A stretch of 64,000 nt of DNA from Escherichia phage phiEc_1 (LC768462.1); one strand, 5' to 3'. Counted from the stretch's first letter, positions 5,777-27,227 are shown. A program made the numbers and translations. The notes: generated from the letters alone by a model not told the origin.

Positions 5777-8020
5777 TTAGTTTTTACTTCCAAGACGTTT
5801 GCCTGGAATCCGTGAATCTTTGAGAGAAGCTTGTTGCTCTTTCTTAGTTACATTAGCTTCTTTCTTTTGGAGTTCCAAAGTTTTATCCTGAACACGAGCT
5901 TGCTGAACAATCTTCTCTTGGTCTACCTGATGAGACATAACCATCTGCAATTCTTTCAGTACAGATTCATACTGACGGACCTGCTGTTGCATAAGAGCTA
6001 ACTTGTGCTTAGCTTGTTCCAGAGTAGCATTGTTATCTTCTTTACGGTTTTCCAGAGTCATTGCATCTGCTGCATTTTCTTGCTTGAACTGCAACTCTTC
6101 CTGACGCAGACTTAATTCATCCGCAGCTTTCTGCTGTTCGAATGTAGTACGTTCACGTTGGTCGAATGCATCAGCAATCATCTTCTGAGAAGAAGCCTGT
6201 ACGTTCTCAACCTGTGCTTTAGTCATCTCGAGCTGGAGGATTTCCATCGGAGAAGGTTCTGGAGGCTGATACTGTTCCAGAGGCAGAAGGTATTTATGTG
6301 TGTCCTTAATGCCCATCAACTCAAAGATCTGTGCAGTCATGTAACGATCTTGCTCCAAACCAAAGAGAGGCGCTAACTGTGCATCTGCTGCAATCAGCTG
6401 TTTCAAGCTAATCAGTTTCTGTGCACGTTCTGCTTTCTCATTAGGAGAGATAGCTACAACAACTTGAAGATTGTGACGAGCTGGCAGTTGTTTTGGATTT
6501 ACCTGAATCATACCACGAGGGGTTTGTACCTCGATAGGAACTTCACCATTTTCTCTGATAAGGTTGTAAATACCACGCATCAATTCAACCATACCGTTGT
6601 GAGCAATGTTACGACATACCATACGGAGGCGGTTCTGTGCAGCATTCATCATCAAGCCTACAGTTGCATAAGCGTTATCATTCTTAAACACATCAGGGTT
6701 GATACCCATGCCTAGTTTGGTTACACCTGTACGTGTCTCTTTAAGCTCCTCAGACATGCCTAGGAGGCCGTCAATACCTTGAGGTAGGTTATGGTATGGG
6801 AACAGGTCAATAGCGTCCTGACGTTCCATTTCAACCACTCCACCGGGACGGTTATCAAGCAGAGAGCGACGGTCGTATGCACCAACAAGAGCTTTGTATC
6901 GACCATAGTTAGCATTGTTGACGTTATCAATATAACCACGAACTAACGCGGTACGTAAATCTTGAATATCTTTCGTAATGTCATAGACCGATTGACCATA
7001 GAAGGAGCCTGGAATCGGATACGGACAGAAGGTTACAAACGGAATGTGAGTTACTTCTTCAGTGTGAAGGATATGCTCACCAGCTTGAATAACCTGATAG
7101 AGTTTAGACTCTTTATTCTTATCTAGAACACCAGTACGAATGTAGTGCTCGTAAACCCAAACCATAGAAGCAATATCTTCGGTATCTGTACCAATATCAG
7201 CATCAATATCCTGACGCCAGTCAGTACGAGACCAAGCAACTGTAGATTGAGTAGTATCCATCGTGTCTGTCCAGTCGTTGAATGCTTCAATCTCGTCTTT
7301 AGGGAAGCCCATAGCAACCAGATCTTCTTTAGAACGACGAACACGATGACAGAAGTATTGTGCATCTGCAAAAGAGGTAGCATGTTCGTCAACAAAGATT
7401 TGCTCTGAAGGGACATATTCAACTTTCACACGTTTAACAGTTTGTTCGTAAGTAACTTTAACATCCACTGTACCATCTTCATTTTCTTCAGTGAAGATTT
7501 CCAGATTCTTGAGTCCACCAGCTTCTAATCCCTGAACATATGCAGCCAATGCTTCCGGTGGTACACCTTCAGCTTCTTCAGTTTGAGTAGAAGTTTGTTC
7601 ATCCCAATAATACTTGATAAAAGAGTTACGAGTAACTAGACATTCTTGTGCAGCAGAAGAGATAATATTGTATCCCGGATTATCACGCAGAAGAATTTGG
7701 TTAACTAGTTTAGTTGCTACATCAGCAGCATCAGAATCCTGTTGGTTGTCAGCTACGAAAGTAACTGCTTCATCACCAGAACAGAATACGTTAATAATAT
7801 CTTGCAATGTACCGTTAACAGATTCCCAAACAGTACGATCTACCCAACTAGAGCTGCCAGCAGTTACTGGTGCAGGTAAGTTACCATAGAAATATTCCCA
7901 AGCTTCACGAGCATAGCCCTTAACAGCCATGTCCACGTAACCTTGAGCGTAATTAAAACGACGTTGAAGGTCAACACGTAACTCGTCCAACACCTCTTCA
8001 CTATATTTTTGCTTAGCCAT
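5777..8020 (-). CDS. portal protein
   Basis: 747-aa ORF immediately downstream of terminase large subunit; C-terminal coiled coil. Confidence 0.7.
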   Translation of the reverse strand: MAKQKYSEEVLDELRVDLQRRFNYAQGYVDMAVKGYAREAWEYFYGNLPAPVTAGSSSWVDRTVWESVNGTLQDIINVFCSGDEAVTFVADNQQDSDAADVATKLVNQILLRDNPGYNIISSAAQECLVTRNSFIKYYWDEQTSTQTEEAEGVPPEALAAYVQGLEAGGLKNLEIFTEENEDGTVDVKVTYEQTVKRVKVEYVPSEQIFVDEHATSFADAQYFCHRVRRSKEDLVAMGFPKDEIEAFNDWTDTMDTTQSTVAWSRTDWRQDIDADIGTDTEDIASMVWVYEHYIRTGVLDKNKESKLYQVIQAGEHILHTEEVTHIPFVTFCPYPIPGSFYGQSVYDITKDIQDLRTALVRGYIDNVNNANYGRYKALVGAYDRRSLLDNRPGGVVEMERQDAIDLFPYHNLPQGIDGLLGMSEELKETRTGVTKLGMGINPDVFKNDNAYATVGLMMNAAQNRLRMVCRNIAHNGMVELMRGIYNLIRENGEVPIEVQTPRGMIQVNPKQLPARHNLQVVVAISPNEKAERAQKLISLKQLIAADAQLAPLFGLEQDRYMTAQIFELMGIKDTHKYLLPLEQYQPPEPSPMEILQLEMTKAQVENVQASSQKMIADAFDQRERTTFEQQKAADELSLRQEELQFKQENAADAMTLENRKEDNNATLEQAKHKLALMQQQVRQYESVLKELQMVMSHQVDQEKIVQQARVQDKTLELQKKEANVTKKEQQASLKDSRIPGKRLGSKN

Positions 8021-17126: not shown

Positions 17127-17150
17127 GTAAGACAATTTAAATAAACATAA

Positions 17151-20814: not shown

Positions 20815-21027
20815 ATGAACATTGAAAAGAAGGTTGTTGACGAGGCTGTTCAGTTACGATCTCTTGAAACACATGATGTATTTGTGTGGGGAGGCAGTCT
20901 GTTTCAGAAATCTGCTTATGCTGTAGAGGGCGGGGTTCGTTGTTTTAATATCTTCAACAATGAGATGCAAATCCTTCCTAACTTCGCTCATGTTAATAAA
21001 CTTATCCACCTTTCTATATATCAATAA
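20815..21027 (+). CDS. small paralog family member 3
   Basis: paralog pattern (LETHDVFVW...). Confidence 0.5.
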   Translation: MNIEKKVVDEAVQLRSLETHDVFVWGGSLFQKSAYAVEGGVRCFNIFNNEMQILPNFAHVNKLIHLSIYQ

Positions 21028-21037
21028 GGGCAATTAG

Positions 21038-21256
21038 ATGGAAATTAAAGTAGTTGATTATCCTAAATATGCAAATGCAGAGGACGTTAAAGGTGGTGAT
21101 GTTTTCTCTTATGATAAACGTTTCTGGCTGATGCTAGAAGATAAAACCCCTGATGGTTTGTGTAAGGCTGCTAACTTGAGCAGTGGTTCTGTTGAAGTCT
21201 TCGGTCTATCAACCACTGTTATGCCACGACCTGATCTGTGTTTATCCCAAAAGTAA
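21038..21256 (+). CDS. small paralog family member 4
   Basis: paralog pattern (VKGGDVFSY...). Confidence 0.55.
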   Translation: MEIKVVDYPKYANAEDVKGGDVFSYDKRFWLMLEDKTPDGLCKAANLSSGSVEVFGLSTTVMPRPDLCLSQK

Positions 21257-21614
21257 CACCGACTTATAGCCCTTGTGTTTATCAGAGGGCTATGTGAGGG
21301 TGTTCCTCATTAACTTATTAATTCAGGCATATGCCACACCGCTAGGGAGAGCTTGCTCGAACATCCGGTGTTAGACTAAAACCTGTTAATTTTCGAAAGA
21401 CTTTCCGATATGTAGGGGTACGTATTGGTTTGGGATTCAGGAGACTTCCTAGGGGTAGGGAGTCTTCACCAGTTGGAATAAGAGATAGCTCTAGAACCTG
21501 AACTCTTAGGCAGAGAAGGTCGGCAATGAGTACGCGGTCAGGGTTAGTCTACTGACTAGGGCTATCCCTTATATCAACTGGCAATAATGCCTCCACTAAC
21601 AAAGAGAGATAGGT

Positions 21615-21755
21615 ATGAAAGTATCAACCAAACGTATGAACCGCCCTGAACGTATGGATGCAGTAGCTAATGGTGCTCTGAAACTGGAAGGCTTTTGGAT
21701 TCATGCAATGTCAGCCATCCGTAACAAGCAAGGTAATTGGACGTATAACAGTTAA
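21615..21755 (+). CDS. small hypothetical protein (46 aa)
   Basis: short ORF followed directly by a terminator. Confidence 0.35.
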   Translation: MKVSTKRMNRPERMDAVANGALKLEGFWIHAMSAIRNKQGNWTYNS

Positions 21756-21763
21756 TAAATAAA

Positions 21764-21794
21764 AGGCTGCCTTCGGGTGGCCTTTGTTGTTTTA
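21764..21794 (+). terminator. intrinsic terminator
   Basis: GGCUGCC-UUCG-GGUGGCC + U-rich tail. Confidence 0.6.
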
Positions 21795-21836
21795 ATTAAG
21801 GGACAACTCTTACTTAAACTAACAAGAGGTGCTTAT

Positions 21837-22190
21837 ATGAGACGCATGGTTAAAGATTGGGTCACTAAATCAGGTCTTCGTGCTGTGATTATGCACATGA
21901 ACGACTCCCATTTTTGTGGATATGTAGAGCTACCAGACAGCTTAAAACATAAAAACTTCACCGGATATAACGGAAAGGAAGAGGTTTGTTATGTAAGTGT
22001 TCATGGTGGTGTCACATGGCAAGACACCCTTGAAGAGATGGGTGGTTTAGATACAATCGGATTTGATTGTGCCCATGCAGGTGATAAGACACGGTTCAAC
22101 CCTAACGGGATACCAAGAACAGAAGAGTTCTGCGTTAATGAATGCGAACAATTGGCTGAACAACTAAGAGATCTAGAATCAAATGTCTAA
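21837..22190 (+). CDS. hypothetical protein
   Basis: ATG with AAGAGGTG SD; 117 aa. Confidence 0.55.
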   Translation: MRRMVKDWVTKSGLRAVIMHMNDSHFCGYVELPDSLKHKNFTGYNGKEEVCYVSVHGGVTWQDTLEEMGGLDTIGFDCAHAGDKTRFNPNGIPRTEEFCVNECEQLAEQLRDLESNV

Positions 22191-22359
22191 GCAAATAATC
22201 AAACATACGCAAGCTGGTTACTCTTATGTCAACTCTCCTTGCTGCGGTGCTCGTATTAGTCTGGTTAAGGAAGAGGTTCGTATTGTTCAGCGTGGCGCTA
22301 CTGTTGTTCGTTCATGCTGTGTCTGTGGTAATGACATTTTTATCAAAGGTAAAGTATGA
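22183..22359 (+). CDS. small Cys-rich protein
   Basis: 58 aa with CC..//..CCVC; start/stop overlaps with both neighbours. Confidence 0.4.
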   Translation: MSKQIIKHTQAGYSYVNSPCCGARISLVKEEVRIVQRGATVVRSCCVCGNDIFIKGKV

Positions 22360-22607
22360 AAAACTTCCAAGCTGCACCAATCACTAAAGTGATCGAAGTT
22401 GATGGTATAATGATGACTGTTCCTCTGAACACTCGTTACATTGCAATTGACAAGATGGGTTATGTATGGGCTTGGAAGATCAAGCCTAGTTATAACGCAT
22501 TGTTTGATGAGTTTGTTTGTACTGGAACTTACAGTCCCACATTCTTAGGTTTATTTGGAGAATTTGATGGTAAGCATAAAATCATCACACTCCCTGCTTG
22601 TGCTTGA
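22356..22607 (+). CDS. hypothetical protein (paralog of next gene)
   Basis: 83 aa; similar to 22615-22848. Confidence 0.5.
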   Translation: MKNFQAAPITKVIEVDGIMMTVPLNTRYIAIDKMGYVWAWKIKPSYNALFDEFVCTGTYSPTFLGLFGEFDGKHKIITLPACA

Positions 22608-22614
22608 GGTTAAT

Positions 22615-22848
22615 ATGAAAGGAAAAGAGGTTAAATATTTTGGCGAAGTTGTTAAAGTGGACAGCTCTATAAGATATTTAGCAACTGATAGCAACGGCGA
22701 GGTATATGGGTTTACCCATAAGCCAGAAATTCGTGGGTATGCTTGGGCACTTCCTTATGGGACTCCGTTCGAGACGGGAGGAGCTGTTTATCTTAACGAT
22801 AATGGACCTCTGTTTGCATGGAAAACATCTCTCGTTGAGGTGGTGTAA
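22615..22848 (+). CDS. hypothetical protein (paralog of previous gene)
   Basis: 78 aa. Confidence 0.5.
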   Translation: MKGKEVKYFGEVVKVDSSIRYLATDSNGEVYGFTHKPEIRGYAWALPYGTPFETGGAVYLNDNGPLFAWKTSLVEVV

Positions 22849-23022
22849 TTATGTTCAAGTGGTTTAAACGTCTATTCCATCTGCATGATTGGGAGACAAT
22901 AAAAGAAATTCGTTTACACATATATAATGAGATCGGTCAAATAGAAGACACAGGTACTCGTTATATACTTCGATGTAAAACATGTGGTCATATCACCAAA
23001 CGAGATATGATCTAAATCTTAT

Positions 23023-23095
23023 GCGCTCTTAGCTCAATGGATAGAGCAGTAGCCTTCTAAGCTATTGGTTACAGGTTCGAGTCCTGTAGGGCGCA
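23023..23095 (+). tRNA. tRNA-Arg (anticodon UCU); CCA encoded at 23096-23098
   Basis: hand-folded cloverleaf: 7-bp acceptor stem, D-arm, anticodon loop CU-UCU-AA, T-arm ACAGG-TTCGAGT-CCTGT. Confidence 0.9.
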
Positions 23096-23117
23096 CCAAA
23101 TCTAATAGGAGGTAATT

Positions 23118-23417
23118 ATGAGTTGGGGTGGTGTAATATCCTTAATCTGTATCTTCCTTGTCTGCATAGCCCTTACAGGCTGCGTACAGAGCCGTCCTGA
23201 TGGATGGTGTGCAGTAGCAGTGGAAGGTGTTTGTGTTTCTCGCTGGCATAAGGGTGAGAAGATTCCTTCTGGTGAAATTGATATGCGATGGAACGGAGCA
23301 ACCTGTTCTAATGCTAACCCTTCTATCAACGAAGAGAAGTCTACACCGGATAATGTTGTTATTGATACAGCATTGTGGTGTGGTGGCTCTACGATTACAA
23401 CCGGTAAGGAGTGGTGA
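23118..23417 (+). CDS. lipoprotein
   Basis: signal peptide with lipobox LTGC. Confidence 0.6.
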   Translation: MSWGGVISLICIFLVCIALTGCVQSRPDGWCAVAVEGVCVSRWHKGEKIPSGEIDMRWNGATCSNANPSINEEKSTPDNVVIDTALWCGGSTITTGKEW

Positions 23418-23418
23418 T

Positions 23419-23616
23419 ATGAATTACACATCTACAAAGGTGTTAATTGATTCGATTAATAACTCCTCAGAAACTGTACAGGAGCGTTTAATACAAGATG
23501 TTAGCAATGACATTAAGTTCTTTGTTAAGAGCCGCCTGTTAGGTTCTAAGGCTTATTACAGAGCTAAAGCAGAGCTTACAAAGAGGATGTTTCTTTTACA
23601 TGGTTTGGTATATTAA
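23419..23616 (+). CDS. hypothetical protein
   Basis: ATG with AAGGAG SD 7 nt upstream. Confidence 0.45.
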   Translation: MNYTSTKVLIDSINNSSETVQERLIQDVSNDIKFFVKSRLLGSKAYYRAKAELTKRMFLLHGLVY

Positions 23617-23625
23617 GGAACTTAT

Positions 23626-23847
23626 ATGAAACTAGACTCTAAGCAGTCACTTAAAACTGTTGAATTGTCCACGCTGCCAAACGGAAGTATTTTTGGTCAT
23701 GATAAACACTTCTGGATTAAAACAGACATCATAGACGATGGATATATCACCTGTGTCAATCTTTGGAACGGCTCAGTGGATGGCTATCGCCCTAGTGCAA
23801 AAGTAGTCCCTCAGCCTGATGCAAAGGCTACAGGTTTAGTTTACTAA
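23626..23847 (+). CDS. small paralog family member 5
   Basis: paralog pattern (LPNGSIFGH...). Confidence 0.5.
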   Translation: MKLDSKQSLKTVELSTLPNGSIFGHDKHFWIKTDIIDDGYITCVNLWNGSVDGYRPSAKVVPQPDAKATGLVY

Positions 23848-23856
23848 GGAGCCTGT

Positions 23857-24030
23857 ATGAGTTGTTTTGGTGGCGGTGAAGTAGATGACGATGATGACAT
23901 GGAATCCAACGGTACATGTCCTGATTGTGGATGTGAGACGTTTGATGGGGTGTCTGTTTATCCTGCCTGTAGTTACTCACCAGTGATCTGTAAAACATGT
24001 GGTGATCAGCCGTGTGACCAATCTTGTTAA
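23857..24030 (+). CDS. small acidic Cys-rich protein
   Basis: 57 aa, 9 Cys. Confidence 0.35.
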   Translation: MSCFGGGEVDDDDDMESNGTCPDCGCETFDGVSVYPACSYSPVICKTCGDQPCDQSC

Positions 24031-24182
24031 GAGAATCTTATGACTGAAGAATTTTTAGAGTGGTTTGGGAACACCTTCAAAGATTATCTATTCTCTCCAG
24101 AAGACTTTGAAGAACTGAAAACCTACACTTGGTTGGCTTGGAGAGATAGCCGACGAAAGTTGAACAAGTAAGAGACGATTAA

Positions 24183-24440
24183 ATGGGTTTACTTGATATT
24201 TTTATCTCAGTTTACTTTATTGGAGTATTCCTTTCTGTCTTAGTGATGAAACTGCTATACAAGAAAGGTCTACTAAAAGGGGTCATTACAACAGGGTCTA
24301 CCAGCTCTGAACCTGATGAGATGATGGTTGTTCTCTTAATTGTGTTGTGGCCTATCTCAATACTGTCAGGAGTTTTTTATCCAATAGGTTGGCTTCTGTT
24401 TAAAGCATATGATGCAGTTATGCATTTTATCTTTAAGTAA
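24183..24440 (+). CDS. small membrane protein
   Basis: 2-3 hydrophobic helices. Confidence 0.5.
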   Translation: MGLLDIFISVYFIGVFLSVLVMKLLYKKGLLKGVITTGSTSSEPDEMMVVLLIVLWPISILSGVFYPIGWLLFKAYDAVMHFIFK

Positions 24441-24730
24441 TATCGTGAAGGATTCTTACGAGAGTCCTTTGAGATAGGACTTCAGATCTCCTATCAAACT
24501 AACATTCATGTAACTAGCCCATAAGGGCGTTACCCTTTAATAACCCAGCCCACTAAGGGGGCGGGAGTTTAGTGCTGGATTAGCATAACGCTTATTCCTA
24601 CAAAGGCAACCGATTGTTAGATCTTACATGCAATATTAACTAATAGGATAAGGGAGGATTCGTCCCCTCCCCCTATTTTATTGAATCTTTATCTAAGCAA
24701 GTCTTATATAAACGTTTAATTGGAGGATGT

Positions 24731-25042
24731 ATGAAAGCACGAAGAACTATATGGACTCCGATGCAGATTGAAAATCTTCGGAGACTGATCAAAGAGTACT
24801 CGGTTCAAGAAGTTGCTCAGATTATGAATGTAACGGAGAATGCTGTTAACACAGCTTGCACTAAATTCGGAATATCAAGAGCTTCAATCCGAGTCAAGTG
24901 GTCTAAAGAAGAAGATCAGTTCCTTATCCGTAATGCCGGGTTTATGTCTATTCAGAGAATGGCTGACATGCTTGGTAGAAGTTATGCTGCTGTACAGAAC
25001 AGGGCATGTATGCACCTTAATATTAGCCTCAAACTTAAATAG
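24731..25042 (+). CDS. putative DNA-binding protein with tandem HTH-like repeats
   Basis: two ~45-aa repeats resembling sigma region-4 / Myb-like HTH. Confidence 0.45.
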   Translation: MKARRTIWTPMQIENLRRLIKEYSVQEVAQIMNVTENAVNTACTKFGISRASIRVKWSKEEDQFLIRNAGFMSIQRMADMLGRSYAAVQNRACMHLNISLKLK

Positions 25043-25050
25043 GAATCAAT

Positions 25051-25299
25051 ATGAAGATTACTCACAAGAAAGAAGAAGTGTCCACGGTTGATATCAACTC
25101 TCTTCCTAGTGGAGCAGTATTTAAATTCCCTGAGAGTTCTACTCTCTATGTCAAAGGGTCTGTGTCTGAAAGTCCTAATGTAACCGTTAACTCCGATCGA
25201 GCAATCACTCTTCGTCTATCTGATGGTAACGTAACAGCCCCTTCTATCTGGTGCCGAGTTGTCCCTGTATCGGCAGAACTTTTGGTGGATAATACATAA
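25051..25299 (+). CDS. small paralog family member 6
   Basis: paralog pattern (LPSGAVFKF...). Confidence 0.5.
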   Translation: MKITHKKEEVSTVDINSLPSGAVFKFPESSTLYVKGSVSESPNVTVNSDRAITLRLSDGNVTAPSIWCRVVPVSAELLVDNT

Positions 25300-25544
25300 T
25301 GAAAATCATCCCAAAGAAAAAGGATAATACGGTTCGATTGGAAACAATCATTCCCGGAAACCCCTTCGTAGTTCAGCACGGAAGTGCCTCTCCTCAGTAT
25401 TATATGAGGGTTGAAAATGCTTCTGGTAACATCCGTATAGCCAGTGGCTGGGTTCCTGTAGTAAATCTATCCACAGGTGCACTGTCTGTTAAAGGTCTTG
25501 ATGATCAGGTAGAAATGATTCGTATGTCTGTGGTTCAGGAGTGA
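25299..25544 (+). CDS. small paralog family member 7
   Basis: paralog pattern (IPGNPFVVQ...). Confidence 0.5.
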   Translation: MKIIPKKKDNTVRLETIIPGNPFVVQHGSASPQYYMRVENASGNIRIASGWVPVVNLSTGALSVKGLDDQVEMIRMSVVQE

Positions 25545-25792
25545 GAATGAGCACGATACATATTAAGGTTCACAACAAAGAAAAAAAGAAACTCTTTGTT
25601 AAAGATCTGTCAACCGCTGACATCTTTACTTTAAAAGATGATGACAGTCAGGTCATTTATTTGATGATGCCTCTATCTGGTGGATATCGCAGAGCAGTTA
25701 ATTTAGGTACAGGCGAACCTCGTCCTGTTTCTGACACTCTTGAAGTTGGCGAGAAGTTTGCCAAAGCAGAGATCATCTTAACTCCGATGTAA
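25541..25792 (+). CDS. small paralog family member 8
   Basis: paralog pattern (LSTADIFTL...). Confidence 0.5.
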   Translation: MRMSTIHIKVHNKEKKKLFVKDLSTADIFTLKDDDSQVIYLMMPLSGGYRRAVNLGTGEPRPVSDTLEVGEKFAKAEIILTPM

Positions 25793-26025
25793 GGGTAAGT
25801 AAGTGAAAACAAAAGCATATTCTTATGATGATATGATCAACCAGAAAGGCTTCGGTCAACGCCAGCCTGACGGTTCAATTATCTGGTTTGTAAACGGACA
25901 GAAAAAGGTAGCTAAATAAGCCCTCTTCTCTCCTCCTTTTAGTACTATGACGCCTCTCTGTGGGCGGCCCAATTTGCGTAGGGAATTCCCTCTACGCAGC
26001 CATGACTTTTTAAGGAATTTCCCCT

Positions 26026-26259
26026 ATGTCTAAAGTAAGTGCAATTGATGCAATCCGTCAACCGTTCCAGTTCCAATCCAAATCAACCCAAACCTTCAGC
26101 GAACCTAAGCAAATTCGCTTGGGTGGCACAGAGAAAACTGTGTTCGATCTGGCTAAAAACAAGAGCGTTACCGTAGTTGATGGTGGCACTCTGGTTAACG
26201 TTTCTCATCGCATCCGCACTGGCAAAACTGCCAAAGATCGTGCTAAGAAAGGCGAGTAA
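26026..26259 (+). CDS. hypothetical protein
   Basis: 77-aa ORF. Confidence 0.5.
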   Translation: MSKVSAIDAIRQPFQFQSKSTQTFSEPKQIRLGGTEKTVFDLAKNKSVTVVDGGTLVNVSHRIRTGKTAKDRAKKGE

Positions 26260-26474
26260 TGATAACACTTGTGTCGATCGTTTACAGAATACACTACCGT
26301 CTAGACAAAGGTAAGACCTATAAGTGCAAGAGTAAGACAGGCAATAGATGCTCTGTAGAAAACAACTCTGGTCAATGGGTGGATGTACCTTGTTGTTGGT
26401 TCAGGAAAGACTTGACTAACAAAGAAATTGACGAAATCCTTAGTGATGATTTTGTAAAATCAAGTGATTTTTAG
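26259..26474 (+). CDS. hypothetical protein
   Basis: 71-aa ORF. Confidence 0.45.
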   Translation: MITLVSIVYRIHYRLDKGKTYKCKSKTGNRCSVENNSGQWVDVPCCWFRKDLTNKEIDEILSDDFVKSSDF

Positions 26475-26665
26475 TTGTAGTAACGCCTATAGCCTTCTTC
26501 GGAGGGCTATGTGAGTTATTCTGACTCAACTAACCTAATCTTAATATATTTCCCGTATGGGGCCGATGCTAGGGAGAGGAACATTCCTCGAACATCCGTC
26601 GGATAGATATTTTAAGAGCAGGTTATCCACAGATATTGGGTAATATCTTTTTGTATTTAAAGCTT

Positions 26666-26690
26666 GACTCTTTTCGGAGAGTCCTTTTTT
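26666..26690 (+). terminator. intrinsic terminator
   Basis: GACUCU..AGAGUC hairpin + U6. Confidence 0.5.
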
Positions 26691-26709
26691 AAATTCAACG
26701 AGAGGAAAT

Positions 26710-26862
26710 ATGTCTAAATTAGATTTAAAACTGCTAGCAGCAGCGGTAGTGATTTGTGCACTAGCACTGGTAACGCAGAGAACATCTGGATTTATTCAGT
26801 GTTTCTTTTCTGGGCAATCCACTTATCAGTGGGTTATTGACGAGTGTAAACAACAGGAGTAA
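26710..26862 (+). CDS. small membrane protein (50 aa)
   Basis: hydrophobic core LLAAAVVICALALV. Confidence 0.35.
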   Translation: MSKLDLKLLAAAVVICALALVTQRTSGFIQCFFSGQSTYQWVIDECKQQE

Positions 26863-26864
26863 GT

Positions 26865-27227
26865 ATGAATACACGTCCCATCAAGGGCAACGTTAATATT
26901 GAAACTCTGAACAAGGTTGCATCAAACCTCGGTGGTATGTCCAACGAAGAGCTTGAGCAAGAACTTGCTTGGATTGCAAATGGTATCAAGGTTGCTAAAG
27001 GTAAGATTGCTCGTGAGCAAAGTAACATGAAAGCTCATAAGTATCTAATCCATCGTGCAAACGTGTTACCGGAGCGGGTTGTACATCTTGCCCGTAAAAA
27101 CTACGCAGAAGCAAAGAAAGCTCTGGAAGAAGCTGAGTTCCAGAAGCATCAATTTATGAACAACTATCGAAACTTCCGAGATATTCTTTATATTCGTAAG
27201 TCGATTGAGTTGATTAAAAACCAATAG
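26865..27227 (+). CDS. hypothetical protein
   Basis: 120 aa, coiled-coil. Confidence 0.55.
   Translation: MNTRPIKGNVNIETLNKVASNLGGMSNEELEQELAWIANGIKVAKGKIAREQSNMKAHKYLIHRANVLPERVVHLARKNYAEAKKALEEAEFQKHQFMNNYRNFRDILYIRKSIELIKNQ

Follow-up and report, generated by a model that had tools for sequence, protein, structure and literature searches.

Phages of the phiEco32 and 7-11 type encode a sigma factor and no polymerase, and how an early operon of 26-35 kb that is rich in intrinsic terminators is transcribed in them is an acknowledged open question, the antitermination strategy of 7-11 being one that "remains to be defined" (PMC8948821). The stretch of DNA considered here, 64,000 nucleotides (nt) from Escherichia phage phiEc_1 (LC768462.1) and hereafter called the window, brings this question to a particular locus: within its early region a structured intergenic element occurs twice, and it may be asked what the element is and whether it bears on the passage of the polymerase. 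The two copies, A and B, represent a single RNA domain of about 125 nt in two diverged, paralogous forms, and the element is a new, previously undescribed RNA family. As to its role, we favour, at a probability of roughly 0.3, that of a nut- or put-like site which would control, in cis, read-through at the terminators that follow it. The two cores, as delimited by covariance-model matches, are:

21253-21375, + strand, 123 nt: core of copy A
26480-26607, + strand, 128 nt: core of copy B

Three blocks, GGGCTATGTGAG (exact at 21287 and 26504), GCTAGGGAGAG (21341 and 26568) and CTCGAACATCCG (21356 and 26587), are each found at these two sites only in the window, on the + strand, and are collinear in both copies; single blocks of 11-12 nt are not rare in the window if two mismatches are allowed, whereas the exact ordered triple is far beyond chance. 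Between the first block and the second, A has a gap of 42 nt and B one of 52 nt. A covariance model trained on 12 B-type copies only (R1) finds copy B at 158.7 bits and copy A at 51.2 bits (E about 1e-8), recovers all A-type copies with E-values of 1e-8 to 1e-12, and gives no other credible match in the window; since a model built from B alone recovers A, the two are homologous and there are two copies only. A second model (R2), which includes a divergent member from contig L074 (see below), scores copy A at 98.3 bits and copy B at 139.9 bits.

An earlier note on this DNA, made from the sequence alone, had claimed two copies of a conserved element at about 21259-21375 and 26481-26600, each after a stop codon and before a small gene. 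The duplication and its location are borne out by the blocks and by the model that links A with B, the true limits being slightly wider, and the described setting holds for both copies on the map of open reading frames (ORFs): A opens at the TAA that ends ORF 21038-21256, B opens 6 nt past the stop of ORF 26259-26474, and small ORFs follow at 21615 and 26710, respectively. Two further observations concern the element's first five bases, GUAAC. Just before B, positions 26472-26483 read TAG-TTG-TAG-TAA, three in-frame stops of which the last lies inside GUAAC; and the upstream ORF ends on the UAA of these five bases in copy A, in two Moazamivirus copies and in Escherichia phage PJNS034.

The domain is built of five helices, P2 to P6. 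Two adjacent hairpins (P2 and P3) are followed by an AU-rich linker, a mini-hairpin of 3 base pairs (P4), and then P5, which closes a 7x7 internal loop that is capped by P6; this loop, CUAGGGA opposite GAACAUC, is purine-rich and strictly conserved. The parts of the two copies are as follows:

21253-21257, + strand: 5' GUAAC of copy A, in which the UAA at 21254-21256 is the stop of the upstream ORF
21265-21273 with 21286-21294, + strand: P2 of copy A
21295-21299 with 21305-21309, + strand: P3 of copy A
21310-21325, + strand: AU-rich linker of copy A
21326-21335, + strand: P4 of copy A
21336-21341 with 21366-21371, + strand: P5 of copy A
21342-21348 (CUAGGGA) and 21359-21365 (GAACAUC), + strand: internal loop of copy A
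21349-21358, + strand: P6 of copy A
21372-21375, + strand: tail of copy A, UAGA
26480-26484, + strand: 5' GUAAC of copy B
26488-26511, + strand: P2 of copy B, 10 base pairs with a UUCG loop
26512-26528, + strand: P3 of copy B
26529-26551, + strand: linker of copy B
26552-26561, + strand: P4 of copy B
26563-26568 with 26597-26602, + strand: P5 of copy B
26569-26575 (CUAGGGA) and 26590-26596 (GAACAUC), + strand: internal loop of copy B
26576-26589, + strand: P6 of copy B
26603-26607, + strand: tail of copy B, AUAGA

That the RNA folds in this way, and that the fold is under selection, is very probable. In a model-guided alignment of 37 distinct sequences 97.9% of the cells form standard pairs, as against 35-46% in controls in which the 3' partner was slid, and both sides have changed in 20 of the 29 pairs; the observed values were reached by none of 500 shuffles. 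Two other model-guided alignments gave 98.1% paired with both-side changes in 11 of 29 pairs, and 97.8% paired with 17 of 29. As such alignments are biased towards the model, the weight is placed on the divergent members and on plain MAFFT alignments, in which the same changes in P4 to P6 are visible. Among 20 distinct copies aligned in the latter way, P4 is found as GGC/GCC, CCC/GGG and GCC/GGC, P5 as ACACCG/CGGUGU, UCACCG/CGGUGA, CCGAUG/CGUCGG and UUCGGUG/CGCCGAA, the fourth pair of P6 as G-C, C-G and A-U, and P3 as UGAGG/CCUCA, UGAGU/ACUCA and UGAGC/GCUCA. The minimum free energy folds of copy B and of the 7-11 copy are the consensus structure, and the folding z-score of copy B against shuffles is -2.0 on the + strand and +0.1 on the - strand. 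On the opposite strand the conserved U-G pairs would turn into C-A mismatches, and the structure therefore belongs to the sense (+) RNA. The both-side changes, the + strand G-U pairs and the z-scores thus uphold what the earlier note had read as a functional RNA structure, including its two comparisons of the copies: the loop of P2 is UUCG in B and 12 nt in A, and the inner hairpin varies between constant flanks, P6 being GAG-CUUG-CUC in A and GAGGA-ACAU-UCCUC in B with identical sequence on either side. Helices P3, P4 and P5, a structured extension of 240 nt after A, and a DnaA box and terminator after B are additions to that picture.

The same alignments bear on the idea that there is no RNA function here at all, the element being duplicated DNA, a linker for recombination or a short ORF that is translated into protein. 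Some GenBank records do annotate a 33-amino-acid (aa) ORF inside copy A, and the upstream gene content around the element is mosaic. However, the indels between copies are not multiples of three, the substitutions are concentrated in compensatory pairs, and stems that are unrelated in sequence still pair in L074, Klyazma and PJNS034, so that the covariation already strongly disfavours this explanation, which we consider scarcely credible.

The internal loop is conserved in a manner that goes beyond the helices. Its nucleotides beside P5 are always CUA opposite AUC across the wider family, whilst the position adjoining P6 (alignment columns 121/136; 21348/21359 in A and 26575/26590 in B) is A.G, C.A or A.A and never C-G, with A or C on the 5' side and G or A on the 3' side. 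To judge from the aligned sequences, this covariation points to an ordered loop that contains a non-Watson-Crick pair, and not to a spacer. Inspected by eye, the consensus of the loop fits none of the motifs considered for it, namely kink-turn, loop-E, T-loop and boxA. Closing helices or pseudoknots formed by the 5' GUAAC were likewise rejected: in A, pairing of AACAYC with the P3 loop GRUGUU has one covariation and a geometry that leaves no connecting loop, and in B it is P3 with which the supposed partner covaries (U-A to C-G in ECBP2). The L074 member has no GUAAC, and we treat this motif as being in part stop-codon context.

Searches against known families gave the same answer throughout. 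With Rfam 15 at gathering thresholds the whole window returned tRNA-Arg only, and at permissive E-values (21000-27000, 21240-21630 and 26470-26710) there was no match on either core domain; the sole permissive match on the element's strand was a 13-bit Enterococcus small RNA that covers the tail of B and its flank (26594-26700), and elsewhere in the 6 kb of 21000-27000 the matches were at chance level. ARAGORN called tRNA-Arg at 23023-23098 as the only such gene in the window, and neither copy as a tRNA or tmRNA. These results weigh on the proposal that the element is a riboswitch or a protein-dependent attenuator, with the conserved internal loop and the junctions as its aptamer. Variable stems combined with conserved unpaired nucleotides are the usual riboswitch pattern, and there is a terminator in the leader after B; however, Rfam gave no match even at permissive thresholds, no alternative pairing that would involve the domain was found for the terminator, which stands 60 nt beyond B, there is no terminator close to A-type copies, and no common metabolite is suggested because the downstream genes are unrelated between lineages. 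We regard such a role as very unlikely.

The earlier note had proposed a covariance-model search across related phages, naming a lack of conservation in related genomes as the outcome that would speak against it. The element is clearly conserved, being carried by about 100 Kuravirus records and by the Salmonella 7-11 group and, in divergent form, by Citrovirus-like phages. By blastn, A is found in 98 phage records and B in 103, six Salmonella phages of the 7-11 group (about 72% identity) included. Kuravirus genomes have both copies, whilst Moazamivirus (the 7-11 group) has the B type only, followed by a terminator and then the endolysin gene. A pattern scan of metagenomes added 21 members, all Kuravirus-like or Moazamivirus-like, and a scan of genome collections two genuine ones: L082 (CALKAR010000070.1), binned as Peptococcaceae, with a Kuravirus-like B-type copy of 149 bits, and L074 (JBOFGJ010000684.1), a 48.7-kb contig binned as Flavobacterium whose proteins resemble those of Citrobacter phage CVT22 (Citrovirus, Zobellviridae). 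Both host assignments are probably binning errors. In L074 (3020-3141) the sequences of P2, P3 and P5 are unrelated to the others yet pair, and the internal loop is identical. The R2 model further found single copies in Klebsiella phage Asterion (40 bits, E 6e-7), Escherichia phage PJNS034 (38 bits, E 1e-6), Klebsiella phage Klyazma (32 bits, E 4e-5) and, weakly, Citrobacter phage CVT22 (23 bits, E 0.004); inspected by eye, these four keep P2, P3, the linker, P4, P5 and the outer loop CUA/AUC; their inner loop differs and their P6 is longer. The model searches gave no copy in the fetched early regions of Privateervirus, Libingvirus, Crifsvirus and Erwinia phage Pecta. Exact-pattern matches in four viral contigs (L010, L011, L014 and L015), along with most of those in the genome collections, were rejected as chance: they lie mostly in coding sequences and fail the covariance model.

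An intercistronic module for processing or stability has also to be weighed, a functional equivalent of the RNase III sites of T7 in which RNase E would cut the AU-rich linker between P3 and P4, leaving P2 and P3 to shield the 3' end of the upstream mRNA and P4 to P6 the 5' end of the downstream mRNA. An unpaired AU-rich linker of 16-23 nt between stable hairpins, amongst them the UUCG-capped P2 of 10 base pairs, is what such a module would offer; the element is always between cistrons and starts at a stop codon; the flanking genes are not conserved across phage lineages, which fits a generic role at the level of the transcript; and the 7-11 study mapped a processing site or reverse-transcriptase stop at another intergenic hairpin (PMC8948821). 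However, a stabiliser needs neither a strict 7x7 loop, nor an invariant sequence at the base of P2, nor non-Watson-Crick covariation, and no helix is long enough for RNase III. We think this reading doubtful.

The transcriptional setting is that of the Kuravirus early operon. The window is a Kuravirus (phiEco32-like podophage) genome, its segment 20500-27500 sharing 98.5% identity with phage Ec3-ASingh and 93-98% with SkaterBoy_Bas90, DE5, MN03 and NJ01; WFI101126 is classified as Kuravirus. Early and middle genes occupy the + strand from about 12.3 to 58 kb, with late genes on the - strand in the flanks. Scans for promoters and terminators gave:

12310, 14642 and 15275: sigma70 promoters of consensus quality
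14333, 17149, 18477, 18562, 19356, 21762, 24652 and 26666, + strand: terminator-like hairpins, at least eight in number

The three promoters agree with the early promoters listed for phage SU10, on whose map the next predicted promoter, a middle one, is 26 kb downstream, with none listed in between (PMC4281155, Table S2). From this match and from the promoter and gene map, copies A and B lie within a long early polycistronic unit made by the host RNA polymerase, about 5-11 kb downstream of the sigma70 promoters (A about 6, B about 11). At least seven of the terminator-like sites, all except 14333, are inside this unit, which has no internal promoter on the SU10 map, and so either termination would be weak or an antitermination system would be at work. 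The promoter scan detected no conserved -10/-35 upstream of A or B, where the sequences vary between phages, and the phi32_gp36 promoter motif TAATGTATA has no occurrence near either copy. A third long intergenic region in the operon, 24441-24730 (290 nt), also appears structured and is unrelated to the A/B family; the terminator that closes it, GGGAGGAUUCGUCCCCUCCC + CCUAUUUUAU, has a clear homolog in phage 7-11 (8908-8926, AGGCGGCUCGUCCCCGCCU + CCCUAUUUUA).

Copy A opens a structured leader of about 360 nt before a gene of 46 aa:

21376-21614, + strand, about 240 nt: structured non-coding extension of A, forming the leader of the next gene (Kuravirus alignment, RNAfold)
21615-21755, + strand: phi32_112-like ORF of 46 aa (by translation), PHROG 13305, function unknown
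21762-21795, + strand: intrinsic-terminator-like hairpin with T-rich tail after A and its ORF (terminator scan), kept in other Kuravirus

The extension contains, according to RNAfold, two long hairpins with UA-GGGG-UA tetraloops (21405-21428 and 21440-21467), and only three such hairpins exist on the + strand of the whole window. Kuravirus genomes preserve it, with compensatory changes and with a variable insert of 57 nt (an indel between lineages), and it ends in the ribosome-binding region ACUAACAAAGAGAGAU. It has no Rfam match, and the A region shows no similarity to E. coli genomes. Hairpins of a related kind, with GGGG loops, are also found after the element in Klyazma, Asterion, L074 and PJNS034; being common to the divergent members, they make the A type look like the older, larger form of the RNA, which probably extends well beyond the 123-nt core. 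The terminator at 21762 lies about 390 nt beyond copy A, past the leader and phi32_112. The protein itself has a basic N-terminus (MKVSTKRMNRPER...; KRMNRP...NGALK) and no Pfam match, and its homologs are confined to Kuravirus and Moazamivirus, the genera with the CUAGGG.GAG/CUC.AACAUC version of the loop; we infer from this a candidate protein partner of the domain.

Some observations on related phages may be recorded beside this leader. In phage 7-11 an unannotated intergenic region of 700 nt after gp135 (7047-7757) ends in a ribosome-binding context, ACTAACAAAGAGAGAT, that it shares with the A leader of Kuravirus; it contains two tRNA-like stretches, GGTTCGAATCC and GGTTCGACTCC, that are not called by ARAGORN, and at 7320-7464 it matches the permuted tmRNA of Rfam below threshold (29.6 bits against a gathering score of 47, E 4.5e-4). 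Early-region annotations include a ProQ/FinO-family protein in Salmonella phage pSal-SNUABM-01 (8708-9436) and an "RNA chaperone" in Aeromonas phage BUCT695 (7135-7470), both of which are possible RNA partners.

The surroundings of copy B are of a different kind:

26612-26631, + strand: predicted double DnaA box, TTAAGAGCA-GG-TTATCCACA, with the consensus box, a perfect 9-mer, at 26623-26631
26632-26652, + strand: AT-rich hairpin GAUAUU-GGGU-AAUAUC with UUUUU (sequence reading), not conserved in the 7-11 group
26666-26690, + strand: intrinsic terminator GACUCU-UUUCG-GAGAGUC with U tract (terminator scan), 60 nt past B
26710-26862, + strand: first gene after B, 50 aa, phi32_90-like (ORF list), PHROG 13048, function unknown

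The double box begins 4 nt past copy B, and its pattern, a consensus box with a weaker one 2-3 bp upstream, matches Table 1 of PMC11317965; phages of the 7-11 group retain its core AGGTTATCCACAG behind B. Over the 42 nt of 26610-26651, 5423 of 5426 complete E. coli genomes show a match of 86-95% identity at an unannotated place immediately upstream of nrdD, where the double box tTTAAGAACAggTTATCCACAg is a DnaA site by ChIP-seq (PMC11317965). In the phage orientation the transcript is antisense to the nrdD leader, the similarity ending 1 nt before the nrdD Shine-Dalgarno sequence. The Salmonella nrdD leader has the same box, and 18 nt are complementary between it and phage 7-11. The invariant part is exactly the DnaA consensus, and the site may serve at the level of DNA (DnaA binding) or at that of RNA (antisense). 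The terminator at 26666 has its 7-11 homolog in GGCUCUG-GAAA-CAGAGUC, with compensatory changes, which is an annotated terminator in NC_015938.

Taken at the level of DNA, B could be part of a replication origin or of a DnaA-controlled checkpoint, the RNA fold serving a DNA-level event: either the structured RNA would serve as primer or form an R-loop, or transcription would be blocked or modulated beside the AT-rich stretch by DnaA bound at 26612-26631. The perfect double box immediately 3' of B, conserved in both genera, and the AT-rich region and terminator next to it are in keeping with this, and in origins of the ColE1 type a structured primer RNA and a DnaA box occur together. However, copy A and all members in Citrovirus, PJNS034 and L074 lack the box, the window holds only one other perfect box, the phage has its own primase-helicase, and the GC skew across the window merely follows the direction of transcription; an origin or a DnaA-controlled checkpoint at B is unlikely.

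Taken at the level of RNA, the domain may be the body of a stable non-coding RNA cut from, or terminated in, the early transcript, which would act in trans as a protein sponge or as a base-pairing RNA. B-RNA would then run from about 26480 to about 26690 (about 210 nt), with the single strand between domain and terminator antisense to the host nrdD mRNA leader, and A-RNA would be about 360 nt long with its GGGG-loop hairpins. The 5' edge of conservation is sharp at (G/A)UAAC while the genes before it vary from phage to phage, two genera keep the terminator directly after B, and the succession of 5' domain, single strand, terminator hairpin and U tail resembles small RNAs derived from 3' untranslated regions (3'-UTRs); the complementarity of 26610-26651 to the nrdD leader, and that of 7-11 in Salmonella, can be counted here as well. 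On the other hand, no promoter was found, the DnaA consensus with its GG spacer explains the invariant nrdD-like part fully at the DNA level, and copy A has neither a nearby terminator nor similarity to the host. The promoter scan, moreover, leaves no room for a promoter between the 26666 terminator and the gene at 26710, and since the genes past this terminator thus have none of their own, substantial read-through must occur. We hold a stable RNA to be a tentative possibility. A combination of the two levels, in which the B module of about 210 nt would carry a host-captured 3' single-stranded arm that is antisense to the nrdD leader and tunes the host's supply of dNTPs, and its DNA, as a high-affinity site, would sense or titrate DnaA, with A and its GGGG-loop extension as a second, larger trans-acting RNA, seems improbable.

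Control of read-through is the reading that we favour. The domain would be transcribed within the early transcript and act in cis in the manner of the lambda nut or HK022 put sites; the conserved internal loop would bind either the polymerase itself during elongation or a small phage protein, for which phi32_112 is the obvious candidate; transcription would then proceed through the terminators that follow, and the distal early genes would be expressed in a timed way. A terminator is found after each copy (21762 and 26666), and neither copy has a promoter of its own. We prefer this reading since the layout mirrors nutL-N-tL1 and nutR-tR1, since the conserved terminator right after B makes most sense with regulated read-through, and since a need for antitermination has been stated for this phage group (PMC8948821).

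A number of findings weigh against it, and it should be considered with caution. Terminator-like sites at 17149, 18477, 18562 and 19356 stand between the early promoters and copy A, and as they precede it A cannot explain read-through there; Moazamivirus, too, has terminator-like sites upstream of its single copy. The distance of the element from the promoters is unlike that of put sites, no block like boxA (CGCUCUUA) occurs among the invariant columns, and the loops of P6 vary (CUUG, ACAU, AACU, UAAG, ACUAUA), unlike boxB. The Citrovirus phages, PJNS034 and L074 carry the domain with no detectable phi32_112 homolog, and the genes after the element in them differ and are unrelated to phi32_112. 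As a homolog of lambda N the protein was rejected, hhalign giving a probability of 0.6% against a hand-entered lambda N sequence. Finally, the conserved terminator right after B would suit B as the body of a terminated stable RNA equally well.

For phiEco32 and 7-11, which are model phages for the takeover of transcription with host RNA polymerase, a domain placed before terminators and beside a small basic protein gene is a concrete and easily mutated candidate for the missing control step. Whatever its role, this is a new family of phage non-coding RNA, its carriers belonging to at least four lineages with E. coli, Salmonella, Klebsiella and Citrobacter as hosts, and the nrdD-like double DnaA box after B is a separate lead on how phages that are candidates for therapy may be coupled to the replication state of the host.

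Several known systems invite comparison. The B site tTTAAGAGCAggTTATCCACAg matches tTTAAGAACAggTTATCCACAg of the E. coli nrdD double DnaA box in the box, the 2-nt spacer and the flanks, and the nrdD box is in turn of the datA, DARS and oriC R4 type; unlike it, the phage site is in an early operon, on the transcribed strand and in the opposite orientation, and it is tied to copy B only and not to the whole RNA family. With the RNase III sites of T7, mRNA stabilisers and 3'-UTR small RNAs the element shares its character as a structured intercistronic element in a long early polycistronic transcript, with capped hairpins that flank an AU-rich strand and, in B, a terminator at the end; unlike T7 sites and stabilisers, it has no long double-stranded stem, and the conservation of its internal loop exceeds what a stabiliser needs. 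The putL and putR sites of HK022 are likewise two per genome and are folded RNAs with adjacent stem-loops (cf. P2/P3) that the host RNA polymerase transcribes. However, put is about 70 nt long, promoter-proximal and has no homology of sequence or structure to the element, and factor-independent antitermination of the put type would make the conserved terminator immediately after B hard to explain. The lambda system of nutL, nutR and N differs in that nut consists of boxA and a 15-nt boxB hairpin whilst the element is a five-helix domain of 125 nt, and of the features that define a lambda-type nut site neither the conserved GNRA-like pentaloop of boxB, the loops of P6 varying freely, nor a cognate arginine-rich protein of the N family nearby is present. 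In layout there is nevertheless a parallel: there are two diverged copies in the early transcript, each ahead of an intrinsic terminator, copy A in a long leader that precedes the gene of a small basic protein, with a terminator next (cf. nutL-N-tL1), and copy B between cistrons just before a terminator (cf. nutR-tR1), and this position in the early transcript upstream of terminators is kept in 7-11.

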